64,000 nucleotides of DNA, taken from Escherichia coli (GTDB taxonomy: Bacteria > Pseudomonadota > Gammaproteobacteria > Enterobacterales > Enterobacteriaceae). The stretch lies in the NCBI RefSeq assembly GCF_024502345.1, contig NZ_JALDNN010000001.1. One strand, written 5' to 3'. Position 1 is the first letter of the stretch, and each line of letters begins with the position of its first letter. Made by a program: the position numbers and the translations under genes. The notes under the pieces are model-generated. The model made no database searches. It had not been told where the DNA came from and worked only from the letters and a program-made list of their open reading frames with translations. Of this stretch, positions 7,921-41,165 are shown in pieces.

Positions 7921-8171
7921 GCGAGCGAATCTTTCGTGCTATTCGAGTTATATTCTGAAATATCCAGCGGATCAAGAAAATTCGTTGGATATTTTTTTTG
8001 CATGGATAAAATTATCGCCTCTAAAGTACGTAATAACAGGGAATGTGATGAAAAAAGTTTTATTACAAAACCATCCTGGGAGCGAGAAGTATTCTTTTAA
8101 TGGCTGGGAAATATTTAATAGTAATTTTGAACGGATGATTAAAGAAAATAAGGCCATGCTGCTTTGTAAGT

Positions 8172-8181
8172 GGGGGGGGGG
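8172..8181. repeat. homopolymeric G10 tract inside ynjI, site of the frameshift
   Basis: Ten consecutive G read directly. G8 or G11 would restore a continuous ynjI frame. Confidence 0.9.
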
Positions 8182-9006
8182 TATTTAACATGTGTTGTCG
8201 CTGTAATGTTTGTATTCGCAGCGATAACATCCAACGGTTTGAATGAAAGAGGCCTGATTACCGCGGGATGCTCATTTCTTTATCTATTAATTATGATGGG
8301 GCTTATTGTTCGGGCCGGTTTTAAAGCAAAAAAAGAACAGCTGCATTATTATCAGGCTAAAGGTATTGAGCCGCTCAGTATCGAGAAATTACAGGCGCTA
8401 CAATTGATCACACCTTATCGATTCTATCATAAGCAATGGTCTGAAACGCTGGAGTTCTGGCCGCGAAAGCCTGAACCTGGCAAAGATACCTTCCAATATC
8501 ATGTGCTTCCTTTTTACTCGATCGATATCATAAGTAAAAGACGCGAGTCTTTAGAGGATCAATGGGGTATCGAAGATAGCGAAAGTTATTGTGCCTTAAT
8601 GGAGCATTTTCTTTCTGGCGACCATGGAGCCAATACCTTTAAAGCAAACATGGAGGAAGCCCCAGAGCAGGTTATCGCCTTGTTGAATAAATTTGCTGTT
8701 TTTCCCTCTGACTATATCTCTGATTGCGCTAATCATAGCTCCGGTAAATCCTCGGCGAAGCTAATATGGGCGGCGGAATTATCATGGATGACCTCGATAT
8801 CAAGCACAGCTTTTCAAAACGGGACAATTGAAGAAGAACTGGCCTGGCATTATATAATGCTTGCTTCTCGAAAGGCGCACGAGTTGTTCGAAAGCGAAGA
8901 AGATTATCAAAAAAATAGTCTAATGGGATTTCTTTACTGGCATATCTGCTGCTATCGCAGAAAGTTAACGGATGCTGAACTTGAAGCGTGTTATCGTTAC
9001 GACAAG

Positions 9007-9014
9007 CAGTTTTG
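9007..9014. repeat. target-site duplication (left copy) of the IS1 insertion
   Basis: cagttttg immediately left of the IS1 GGTGATGCTGCC end, identical to 9783-9790. Possibly 9 bp depending on the G at the boundary. Confidence 0.8.
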
Positions 9015-9069
9015 GGTGATGCTGCCAACTTACTGATTTAGTGTATGATGGTGTTTTTGAGGTGCTCCA

Positions 9070-9345
9070 GTGGCTTCTGTTTCTATCAGCTGTCCCTCCT
9101 GTTCAGCTACTGACGGGGTGGTGCGTAACGGCAAAAGCACCGCCGGACATCAGCGCTATCTCTGCTCTCACTGCCGTAAAACATGGCAACTGCAGTTCAC
9201 TTACACCGCTTCTCAACCCGGTACGCACCAGAAAATCATTGATATGGCCATGAATGGCGTTGGATGCCGGGCAACCGCCCGAATTATGGGCGTTGGCCTC
9301 AACACGATTTTCCGCCATTTAAAAAACTCAGGCCGCAGTCGGTAA
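9070..9345 (+). CDS. insA: IS1 InsA (transposition repressor / N-terminal part of the transposase)
   Basis: 91-aa [43 protein letters not shown]... matches IS1 InsA. Confidence 0.95.
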
Positions 9346-9767
9346 CCTCGCGCATACAGCCGGGCAGTGACGTCATCGTCTGCGCGGAAATGGACGAACA
9401 GTGGGGATACGTCGGGGCTAAATCGCGCCAGCGCTGGCTGTTTTACGCGTATGACAGGCTCCGGAAGACGGTTGTTGCGCACGTATTCGGTGAACGCACT
9501 ATGGCGACGCTGGGGCGTCTTATGAGCCTGCTGTCACCCTTTGACGTGGTGATATGGATGACGGATGGCTGGCCGCTGTATGAATCCCGCCTGAAGGGAA
9601 AGCTGCACGTAATCAGCAAGCGATATACGCAGCGAATTGAGCGGCATAACCTGAATCTGAGGCAGCACCTGGCACGGCTGGGACGGAAGTCGCTGTCGTT
9701 CTCAAAATCGGTGGAGCTGCATGACAAAGTCATCGGGCATTATCTGAACATAAAACACTATCAATAA
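9264..9767 (+). CDS. insB: IS1 InsB reading frame (expressed as the InsAB' transposase by -1 frameshifting)
   Basis: ORF ...[21 protein letters not shown]...[39 protein letters not shown]...; the slippery TTAAAAAACTC motif lies at about 9318-9328. Confidence 0.92.
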
Positions 9768-9782
9768 GTTGGAGTCATTACC

Positions 9783-9790
9783 CAGTTTTG
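9783..9790. repeat. target-site duplication (right copy) of the IS1 insertion
   Basis: cagttttg directly after the IS1 right end. Confidence 0.8.
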
Positions 9791-9876
9791 GGAGCACTAC
9801 AGTAAGAAATGCCGTTGGCCCATAAGAAATGTTCCCTGGGGAGCATCATCCGTTAAATACTCATAAACGCCTGAAA

Positions 9877-9976
9877 TTTTGCCGGGGGCGCTGCGCTTGC
9901 CCGGCCTACATTAGAGCGTAACTGCAATGAATTGTGCCCATTTGTAGGCCTGATAAGCGTAGCGCCATCAGGCATT
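9877..9976. repeat. REP / BIME palindromic elements between ynjI and gdhA
   Basis: gcccggcctaca ... tgtaggcctgataagcgtagcgccatcaggc, REP-type imperfect palindromes in inverted arrangement. Confidence 0.7.
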
Positions 9977-9982
9977 TACAAC

Positions 9983-11326
9983 TTAAATCACACCCTGCGC
10001 CAGCATCGCATCGGCAACCTTCACAAAACCGGCAATGTTCGCGCCCTGCACGTAGTTGGTTTGCTCACCTTCACCACCATGCTCAACACAGGCATGGTGG
10101 ATATCCAGCATGATGTGATGCAAACGTGCGTCAACTTTCTCGGCTTTCCAGCCCAGGCGCGCAGCGTTTTGCGCCATTTCAAGGCCTGACGTTGCTACAC
10201 CGCCAGCATTAGCCGCTTTACCCGGTGCAAACAGTACGCCTGCCTGCTGGAACAGTTCAGTCGCTTCGATGGTGGTCGGCATATTTGCCCCTTCGGCGAC
10301 GGCTTTAACGCCATTGGCGATAAGCTGATGCGCGGCGTCAACATCCAGTTCGTTCTGGGTAGCGCAAGGCAGGGCGATATCAACCGGTACAGACCACGGC
10401 TGTTGGCCTTCGAGATAGACCAGACCAAATTCTTTGGCGTAATCTGCCACTCGACCATCGCGGCTGGCTTTGATTTCGATAAGACGTGCCAGTTTCTCTT
10501 TCGTGAATCCGCTTTCATCAACTACAGTGCCGCTGGAGTCTGACGCAGTGATCACCCGAGCACCAAATTCCATCGCTTTTTCGATAGCGTACTGGGCGAC
10601 GTTGCCGGAGCCAGAAACGGAAACGCGCATCCCTTCAAAACCCATACCGTGGCGTTTTAGCATTGCTTCTGTGAAATAAACCAGACCGTAGCCGGTAGCT
10701 TCCGGGCGAATAAGACTGCCGCCAAATGAAAGGCCCTTACCGGTGAAGACGCAGGCGGTATTGTTGGAGAGCTTTTTCATCATCCCCGCCATAAAGCCGA
10801 CTTCACGACCACCAACCCCGATATCACCTGCCGGAACGTCGGTATCCGCGCCCAGGTGGCGATACAGTTCAGTCATCAGCGCCTGGCAAAAACGCATCAC
10901 TTCACCTTCGCTTTTTCCTTTTGGATCGAAATCGCTGCCGCCTTTACCACCGCCCATCGGCAGAGTAGTCAGGGCATTTTTGAAGGTTTGTTCGAAGCCG
11001 AGGAATTTAAGAATGGAGAGGTTAACTGACGGATGGAAACGCATACCGCCTTTGTACGGGCCGATGGCAGAGCTGAACTGCACACGCCATGCACGGTTGA
11101 CCTGTACCTGATTGCGATCATCAACCCATACCACGCGAAACTGGATCACGCGCTCCGGTTCAACCAGACGCTCCAGTAATGACATCTGGCGATATTTTGG
11201 ATTTTGTTCAAGAAAAGGCCAGAGTGTGGTCATTACTTCACGAACGGCTTGCGCGAACTCGGTTTGATTCGGGTCGCGCTTTTGGACATGGTTGAGGAAT
11301 GACTCCAGAGAATATGTCTGATCCAT
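9983..11326 (-). CDS. gdhA: NADP-specific glutamate dehydrogenase
   Basis: 447-aa MDQTYSLESFLNHVQKRDPNQTEFAQAVREV... with the GGGKGG motif. Confidence 0.96.
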   Translation of the reverse strand: MDQTYSLESFLNHVQKRDPNQTEFAQAVREVMTTLWPFLEQNPKYRQMSLLERLVEPERVIQFRVVWVDDRNQVQVNRAWRVQFSSAIGPYKGGMRFHPSVNLSILKFLGFEQTFKNALTTLPMGGGKGGSDFDPKGKSEGEVMRFCQALMTELYRHLGADTDVPAGDIGVGGREVGFMAGMMKKLSNNTACVFTGKGLSFGGSLIRPEATGYGLVYFTEAMLKRHGMGFEGMRVSVSGSGNVAQYAIEKAMEFGARVITASDSSGTVVDESGFTKEKLARLIEIKASRDGRVADYAKEFGLVYLEGQQPWSVPVDIALPCATQNELDVDAAHQLIANGVKAVAEGANMPTTIEATELFQQAGVLFAPGKAANAGGVATSGLEMAQNAARLGWKAEKVDARLHHIMLDIHHACVEHGGEGEQTNYVQGANIAGFVKVADAMLAQGVI

Positions 11327-19585: not shown

Positions 19586-20295
19586 CTATCCTTCATTTTT
19601 TGGGTGAGTAAGTGGGTTGCGGCGCGAAGCAGACAGATCCACATGTTTGTGTCGGGCGTAGAGTTTGGCGAGCTGGACGAGAATAAACAGCGCCAGGCCC
19701 GCCAGACAGAGTTGTAAAATAAAGCGCAGCGTAATGCCTTCATTGGCGAGATCGCTTGCCATCACGGTATAAATAACAATACCGGGCAGGGTCGTGAGTG
19801 CCGAAATAAGGGTATAAGGCCAGAAGGCGATTGTGGTTAATCCGTAAGCGTAATTTTGAATATTGTAAGGAAACAACGGGATTAAGCGGGTCAGAATAAG
19901 AAAATCAATACCGTTACGCGCGATGCCTTTTTCAATGGCCTGGAAGGTATGGCTATGGCCAACGTATTTCAGCAGTAAATCACGTCCCAGCCAGCGCGCC
20001 AGCAGGAATGAGCACGAGGAGGCCAGCGTGGCGGCAATTAATGAGAGTAGTGTTCCTAAGAGCGGCCAAAAACTATTCCTCCAGCGATCACCAGTATGCT
20101 TCCTGGTAACAGAAAGAGGGTGGCAATGATGAATAACAGAATATAGAGGCTATAACCGAACAATCCGCTCTGGCGGATGAGTGTCTGTAAGTGGGGTAAA
20201 TCGGTGAGCAGATCGAATAAACCGAAAGCGTGGATAGCGTAAATGACCAGCGCAAAAATAAGACAGGCAAAAAGAAATTTACGCTCAGCGTTCAT
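19586..20295 (-). pseudogene. ydjX: DedA / TVP38-TMEM64 family membrane protein gene with a 1-bp deletion frameshift
   Basis: Upstream frame ends ...ILVIAGGIVFGRS* at 20056. The downstream frame reads ...WPLLGTLLSLIAATLASSCSFLLARWLGRDLLLKYVGHSHTFQAIEKG...LFPYNIQNYAYG... to 19586. A single C missing from GGCC(C)G at about 20063-20066 joins them into a 236-aa protein. Confidence 0.8.
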
Positions 20296-40360: not shown

Positions 40361-41165
40361 ATGTTTTCTACAAACTTAATACAGAGTAATTATGGTGATT
40401 TAAATATTAAAAGCCTGGCTTTCGAATCTTTTAAAGAAAGGCTTGAGTCTACCATGGCGGCACTCACTTTCTTTATATCAACGGGTCAATGTGACTGCGA
40501 TGAAATAGCAGAGTCGAACTTCAATCGTATGATTGCCTATATGTCTAACATTAACTATGATGCCTCAAAGCCAGGAGCGCCAGCACTTAGTTTTGATACG
40601 TATCTGCAGGACAATGTTAAATATAGAGTGATAATTAATAATCTTTATGGCAGTGAGTTTCGGATAAGAGATGTTAATGAGAATTTTGTTGGGATGGATT
40701 TTACCTGTGAATTCCGACCCGAAAAAATGACGAATTTGATCAATATAAAAAATAGGTTGGTTATTCATTATTTAAGGACTATATACTATGAAAAAAATTA
40801 TATACATCCTGCCGGGAGCATTTTTGCTGCGATTCAAAAAAAATGAGAGTCTCCTAAAGTTTCCTTCGATAATATCAATGCTTAATATCAATCTTCTTTT
40901 TAATCCACTAAATCTTCCGGGAATGGGAAGTGGTGTGCTTGAAGATATTATGAGTATTCCAGATAGTTCACTTAGAAAACGTCTCGGGTATGAGGTTTTA
41001 AGCTTCTCACTACAGGCACATTCATTGAGCCAGGAATGTATTGATAAGTTGGACATTTTTTTCGCTGACGATCTGTTTAAATATGAGTCAGTATGCATCG
41101 CCGCGATGGAACATTTAAAAAGTAAAGCAACGGCCCCTATACAAAACGGACCGTTGCCAGCATAA
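40361..41165 (+). pseudogene. ydjO: AT-rich gene of unknown function, ydjO-like, with a frameshift between two poly-A tracts
   Basis: ORFs 40349-40846 and 40788-41165 overlap in different frames. Removing one A from the A8 run (40836-40843) or the A7 run (40791-40797) gives a single ORF of about 267 aa. Confidence 0.65.

Follow-up and report, generated by a model that had tools for sequence, protein, structure and literature searches.

A complete IS1B-type IS1 in the 3' end of ynjI marks a rare lineage of Escherichia coli

Insertions of IS1 are among the commonest structural variants in Escherichia coli, the usual picture of IS1 target choice is that of an AT-rich, H-NS-bound target, and a published study reportedly links H-NS with IS1 transposition. 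The gene ynjI is regarded as a dispensable, non-essential membrane-protein gene of E. coli. Its product was described as an inner-membrane protein of 346 amino acid residues, the promoter of which is activated by BglJ-RcsB and repressed by H-NS/StpA (PMC3950696). For IS1, the insA/A6C/insB' layout and the role of the A6C motif, a weak promoter partly overlapping the left terminal inverted repeat (IRL) and a target-site duplication of 8 or 9 bp have been documented (PMC12428005). Among the copies of E. coli K-12, the 'consensus' elements IS1A and IS1E were reported to be transpositionally active, and very low transposition rates were observed for the non-consensus copies IS1B, IS1C, IS1D and IS1F in the same 2025 study, in which the substitution L81F in the helix-turn-helix (HTH) domain, present in three low-activity copies, was proposed as a change that may limit transposase activity (PMC12428005). 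Insertion into ynjI itself has a precedent in a heat-evolved laboratory E. coli, where IS10 entered at codon 310 of 346 and generated a 9-bp duplication (PMC10044804).

In the window, i.e., the whole 64-kb stretch of E. coli DNA analysed here, direct reading revealed a complete IS1 of 768 bp and IS1B-like subtype at positions 9015-9782 (plus strand), which aligns to IS1B-type copies of E. coli with 99.9% identity over 768/768 bp. The element starts with GGTGATGCTGCC and ends with GTCATTACC, its right-hand tail, as extracted from the window, reading ...AAGTTGGAGTCATTACC, and both ends are identical to those of the K-12 IS1 copies. An inverted-repeat search together with direct reading placed the terminal inverted repeats at 9015-9037 (IRL, GGTGATGCTGCCAACTTACTGAT) and 9760-9782 (IRR, with the reverse complement GGTAATGACTCCAACTTATTGAT), both given on the plus strand. 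These are imperfect repeats of ~23 bp that begin with GGT and, as the length (768 bp against the ~768 bp of the family), are those of an IS1; the 23-mer of the left end occurs once in the 64-kb window, against 0 occurrences expected from shuffled sequences.

The coding content is equally complete. The insA frame (9070-9345, plus strand, GTG start), identified by reading of the open reading frames, encodes a zinc-finger/HTH repressor of 91 residues that matches the NCBIfam model NF050000 (IS1/IS1595 zinc-binding domain) with 41 bits, above the cut-off of 28. It overlaps insB', whose frame is open to position 9767, and a programmed -1 ribosomal frameshift site, A6C (AAAAAAC), is present in the sequence at 9321-9327 (plus strand), its role being taken from the published description (PMC12428005). 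A -1 slip within the A-run gives a transframe InsAB' transposase of 232 residues (9070-9767, plus strand) that contains no internal stop and scores 243.8 bits against the curated equivalog model NF033558 (IS1 family transposase; cut-off 100), covering profile positions 1-199 of 199. This full-length profile match and the identity of the protein to a widespread IS1B-type transposase suggest that the enzyme is intact. A promoter scan identified a sigma-70-like site at 9022-9049, partly within IRL, at the position published for the weak IS1 promoter (PMC12428005). The promoter and terminator scan of 8900-10100 yielded nothing beyond this promoter-like site and a single weak hairpin within IS1, in numbers at the level of chance. 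Together with the duplication described below, the element has every IS1-defining feature that can be tested in a sequence, namely length, ends, two frames with A6C and a match to the transposase model.

Among the 5,426 complete RefSeq E. coli genomes, the nearest IS1 copies share 99.9% identity with that of the window and are annotated as IS1B-type, under the RefSeq name 'IS1-like element IS1B family transposase'. The copy of E. coli strain 53 differs by a single nucleotide, at IS position 268 (window position 9282; CGA versus CGC, both arginine codons), and its InsAB' is identical. The K-12 copies are more distant, with 3 nucleotide differences for IS1B/IS1C, 5 for IS1D and 8 for IS1A/IS1E. 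The window element and K-12 MG1655 IS1B/IS1C share the length of 768 bp, identical terminal repeats, the same insA/A6C/insB' order, 765 of 768 bases and an identical InsA, Phe81 included; they differ in chromosomal site, at IS positions 127, 268 and 704, and in one amino acid residue of InsAB' (Leu217 here, Gln in IS1B/C). IS1A and IS1E are the same element with the same ends and mechanism and 760/768 identical bases, but the 8 nucleotide differences result in L81F and S130R in InsAB': codon 81 of InsA and InsAB' (window 9310-9312) encodes Phe here and Leu in IS1A/E, and residue 130 is Arg here and Ser there. By analogy with the low-activity K-12 copies, the transposase of the window copy may be weak through L81F, and a transposase acting in trans may have catalysed the move. 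The IS1B-type is, nevertheless, the most abundant IS1 subtype in E. coli, represented by 5,388 records of at least 99% identity in the complete RefSeq genomes, and evidently transposed in this lineage; its abundance implies that the subtype has moved in nature, possibly with transposase supplied in trans.

The insertion left a duplication of the 8-bp sequence CAGTTTTG, found by direct reading and by a repeat search immediately to the left (9007-9014, corresponding to ynjI nucleotides 958-965) and immediately to the right (9783-9790) of the element, so that the span 9007-9790 contains IS1 and both octamers (768 + 16 = 784 bp). The repeat search returned an identity of 10 bp at the IS1 ends (CAGTTTTGGG), because IS1 opens with GG and the target likewise continues with GG. 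The length of the duplication is, therefore, formally ambiguous between 8 and 10 bp, and canonical IS1 ends fit 8 bp only; a duplication of 9 or 10 bp was rejected, as it would require an IS1 without its terminal G or GG. The octamer is weak evidence when taken by itself, since CAGTTTTG occurs 10 times in the window against ~3 expected; what makes it decisive is that it abuts both IS1 ends exactly and that the uninterrupted site of relatives contains one copy. We read this empty site, with a single CAGTTTTG, directly in K-12, in E. coli GF3-3 and in three sister contigs that encode a TopB identical to that of the window; in K-12 the uninterrupted sequence is CGTTACGACAAGCAGTTTTGGGAGCAC. An 8-bp repeat on both sides that is present once in the empty site is one of the two duplication lengths documented for IS1 (PMC12428005).

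The target was identified as ynjI, a DUF1266 gene, by the YnjI equivalog model NF008480 (558.7 bits, cut-off 386), by tblastn with the YnjI of GF3-3 and by the gene order topB-ynjI-gdhA, which is that of K-12. The 5' portion of the gene (codons 1-322) lies at 8048-9014 and the 3' remnant (the last 24 codons and the stop, displaced by IS1 and recognised in the restored frame) at 9791-9866, both on the plus strand. With the GF3-3 query, residues 1-44 align at 8048-8179, residues 43-322 at 8176-9015 in another frame, and residues 320-346 at 9783-9863 with 100% identity. The left flank stops at ynjI nucleotide 965 and the right flank restarts at nucleotide 958, from which it follows that the insertion point lies within codon 322 of 346, where a Trp codon is restored by the first G of the element. 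From the sequence, an in-frame allele would give a product ending in ...YDKQFW-VMLPTY-stop, i.e., YnjI residues 1-322 followed by VMLPTY. As the DUF1266 domain (PF06889) covers residues 167-338 of the intact GF3-3 protein, such a truncation takes away 24 residues and, with them, the domain's last 16 positions. The GC content of ynjI (38-44%) is below that of topB and gdhA (51-58%). As an AT-rich gene under H-NS repression, ynjI agrees with the common pattern of IS1 target choice.

The original prediction, a complete 768-bp IS1 with intact insA, insB and A6C, flanked by an 8-bp direct repeat within the last ~25 codons of ynjI, absent from the K-12 site and with its end about 200 bp from the 3' end of gdhA, agrees with these readings in all respects, the insertion lying in the last 24 codons and the distance to the gdhA stop codon being 200 bp. 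The placement in ynjI was right, but it had been overlooked that this ynjI is already frameshifted, at a G10 homopolymer at 8172-8181. No other homopolymer in the window reaches 9 nt. When compared with the in-frame alleles G8T and G5T4, the tract (plus strand, codons ~43-46) represents a +2 frameshift: K-12-like genomes read GGGGGTTTT at this place (G5T4 in K-12), GF3-3 has G8T, the window has a net gain of 2, and the translation of the restored ynjI shifts frame at codon ~44. IS1 is thus a second lesion in a pseudogene, since the G10 frameshift already breaks ynjI at codon ~44; the gene was probably off before IS1 arrived and, given this upstream frameshift, the element would have had essentially no extra effect on it.

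We counted the alleles of the tract in complete genomes as exact matches of 78-82-mers spanning it. The in-frame alleles G5T4, G8T and G11T were found in 2,058, 460 and 31 complete genomes, respectively, and the out-of-frame alleles G7T, G9T and G10T in 52, 189 and 108, so that out-of-frame poly-G alleles of ynjI are present in at least 349 complete genomes; across E. coli the tract ranges from G7 to G12. In SE11 (G10T) ynjI is annotated as 'frameshifted', and a G11T strain has an intact gene (347 aa). Twelve sequences with the IS1 junction of the window are identical over ynjI nucleotides 1-965 except in the tract, which is G9 in three, G10 in four, G11 in four and G12 in one. A comparison of these sequences points to a genuinely hypermutable tract or, with lower probability given the consistency across platforms and assemblers, to noise in homopolymer sequencing.

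A long homopolymer inside a reading frame, with a length that varies among clonally related genomes, is what is expected of a contingency locus, and we considered that the tract could be a slipped-strand contingency switch. The protein so switched would be an inner-membrane DUF1266 protein, silenced by H-NS and activated by BglJ-RcsB. Selected switching finds no such counterpart: the allele counts decay smoothly from G8, and there was no rebound of in-frame G11 over out-of-frame G10 in the complete genomes. This smooth decay gives no sign of selection maintaining the reading frame, and thereby speaks more for a hotspot of mutation in a dispensable gene than for an adaptive phase switch. We therefore regard a switch as unlikely, and favour the duller alternative of a mutational hotspot and nothing more, by which dispensable ynjI is being degraded. 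To our knowledge, slipped-strand contingency switches are uncommon in E. coli. None of the open-access papers mentioning ynjI appears, from its title and abstract, to concern the poly-G tract, and a search of the literature on poly-G phase variation in E. coli gave, among the papers listed, none on ynjI or on E. coli.

Other IS1 copies were found in ynjI, at different places. In strains CT02, HCP8S3_I1 and ETEC1720 the element is located at ynjI nucleotides 738-746 (9-bp duplication, 99.0% identity to the window copy), 649-657 (9-bp duplication, 93.9%) and 489-496 (8-bp duplication, 97.0%), respectively; in strain 53 the IS1 (99.87%) lacks a duplication, ynjI has lost its 5' part, and an IS621 is adjacent, beside gdhA. 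All four are independent insertions that share with the window the gene and the orientation relative to it; the window IS1 is at nucleotides 958-965, and their IS1 subtypes differ. In the IS10 case, too, the cell tolerates an element inserted into the 3' end of ynjI; this case is distinguished by the family of the element (IS1 here), by the codon and by its origin in a laboratory strain (PMC10044804). In total, IS1 in this orientation is present in ynjI in ~15 of the 5,426 complete genomes, some of them clonal. By our own estimate, uniform insertion would give ~13 (59,345 chromosomal IS1 places x 1,041 bp / ~4.9 Mb), and ynjI was accordingly rejected as an IS1 hotspot.

IS1 at the ynjI junction of the window is absent from all 5,426 complete RefSeq E. 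coli genomes, as judged by single-piece matches to 400-bp junction-spanning queries. The matches that covered a junction query in full were all in two pieces, spread over 545-1,087 bp, and hence represent IS1 elsewhere in ynjI. No match to the exact left junction was found in GTDB species-representative genomes, and none to the exact right junction in JGI metagenome contigs. The same left junction is, however, present on at least 30 IS1-positive contigs. Their sources are NCBI drafts, Logan assemblies and metagenomes of ENA, one of which bears the label human gut metagenome. Three contigs with the TopB of the window break inside IS1 exactly at this junction, and IS1-truncated YnjI products of 276 and 329 residues are encoded on at least 20 contigs and on 10 contigs, respectively. 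The original prediction of a strain-specific insertion is thus too narrow: the insertion is specific to a lineage, not to a strain, and is best described from these comparisons as derived, recent and fixed in a sub-lineage.

From yeaC to selO, over its full 64 kb, the window aligns collinearly with E. coli GF3-3 (98.6-99.1% identity), IS1 being the only large indel, and the nearest complete genomes are GF3-3 and the O55:H7/O157 group; the best of the 5,426 complete genomes searched reaches no more than 98.7% identity over 20 kb. For the relatives, by comparison, identity to the window is 99.8-99.97% over stretches of 3-6 kb. The exact TopB protein of the window was found in 58 index blocks, none with a contig longer than 1 Mb, and its exact GdhA in 63,614 index blocks, with only empty-site loci among the matches listed. 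The right junction was seen in the window alone, the short-read contigs of the relatives ending inside IS1. Since it was recovered from no other assembly, the completeness of the element at this site rests on the window; that all short-read contigs break in IS1 points to several IS1 copies per genome.

We consider that this locus almost certainly arose by simple transposition of an IS1B-type IS1 into AT-rich ynjI in a recent ancestor of a rare E. coli lineage. Following the established IS1 mechanism, the InsAB' transposase would have been made by a ribosomal -1 slip at A6C, and would have bound both terminal inverted repeats and joined the element to staggered cuts in the target, the repair of the stagger yielding the 8-bp duplication of CAGTTTTG; this chemistry is presumed to have operated here as it does elsewhere. 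IS1 would have arrived as a second hit on a gene already out of frame from codon ~44, and the event was presumably neutral. An assembler could, in principle, have mis-threaded a multi-copy IS1 into ynjI, as most E. coli have IS1 in several copies (a median of 11 places per genome), the short-read assemblies of the relatives break inside it and the right junction was not found elsewhere. Such an artefact is, nevertheless, extremely improbable: at least 30 independent NCBI, ENA and Logan contigs share the identical left junction, the exact octamer at both ends is not something that a mis-join can create, and both flanks are, this insertion aside, collinear with the reference. We give just as little credence to the converse history, in which IS1 was ancestral at the site and was precisely excised in the other E. 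coli. It is a formal possibility only, set against the absence of the junction from all complete genomes, the clean single-copy site in K-12, GF3-3 and the three contigs with identical TopB, the identity of the two copies of the duplication, an IS1 that is one base off the commonest IS1B-type sequence, and the different positions and subtypes of the other IS1 copies in ynjI.

Slightly less remote, but still very unlikely, is an adaptive insertion, selected for the inactivation of ynjI or for an altered 3'-end formation of gdhA or antisense transcription into it. The gene has been hit repeatedly, by IS1 in ~15 complete genomes and by IS10 at codon 310 (PMC10044804), its out-of-frame poly-G alleles are found in at least 349 complete genomes, and the IS1 end is only 200 bp from gdhA. 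The number of IS1 insertions in ynjI is, however, close to that given by uniform random insertion (~15 against ~13), and a gene that was probably already off by frameshift leaves little to select. As for the neighbour, gdhA is convergent and intact, and at the right end of IS1 the scan of 8900-10100 revealed no promoter-like site that faces outward.

The neighbouring gdhA (9983-11326, minus strand) encodes a full-length protein of 447 residues, 99.8% identical to the GdhA of GF3-3, and is convergent with both ynjI and IS1; its stop codon is at 9983-9985. The inverted-repeat search detected, between IS1 and gdhA, an imperfect palindrome pair that looks REP-like. Since no co-directional gene lies downstream of the monocistronic ynjI, and since gdhA is intact and transcribed towards it, we expect neither a polar nor an activating effect on a neighbour, and gdhA would be unaffected by IS1. 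A different arrangement was observed in GCA_044160525.1, which has an identical GdhA: no ynjI is called there and a topB encoding 651 aa starts ~85 bp from gdhA (locus 2844-2930), which suggests that ynjI has been wholly deleted.

IS1 is the one insertion sequence in the 64 kb, in which five of ~64 genes are pseudogenes. These five, together with the proximity to the O55:H7/O157 group, led us to consider Shigella as the source, a reading that finds no support in a stretch with a single insertion sequence and in a TopB allele that the public index lists on no contig above 1 Mb. Relative to GF3-3, ydjX (19589-20295, minus strand) has a 1-bp deletion at 20064 (GCGGGCC to GCGGCC) that splits it into two frames (residues 1-77 and 76-236). 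In ydjO (40361-41162), unusually diverged at 89-92% amino acid identity to GF3-3, a homopolymer insertion from A7 to A8 at 40836 causes a frameshift. A homologue of espL1, a type III effector gene (48504-50370, minus strand), is degraded by indels and has 10 stops in the gene frame, the terminal one included; it is only 88% identical to GF3-3 over most of its length, with an 18-bp alignment discontinuity at ~48780. In selO (62218-63654), a TTG-to-TAG nonsense change at 63565-63567 (codon 450 of 478) makes SelO, a protein adenylyltransferase, 29 residues shorter.

The insertion described here is an ordinary one, an already-known kind of event and not new biology, at a site that is new with respect to complete reference genomes and already present in public draft and metagenome data. 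Its junction, in which CAAGCAGTTTTG is directly followed by GGTGATGCTG, is usable as a clean and unique clonal marker, and the lineage so marked recurs in human-gut metagenomes and draft assemblies while being absent from the 5,426 complete RefSeq genomes. The poly-G tract of ynjI matters for annotation, as the gene is out of frame in hundreds of strains and many of the 'frameshifted' calls are probably real, and it could serve, on a small scale, for testing how unstable homopolymers are in E. coli.
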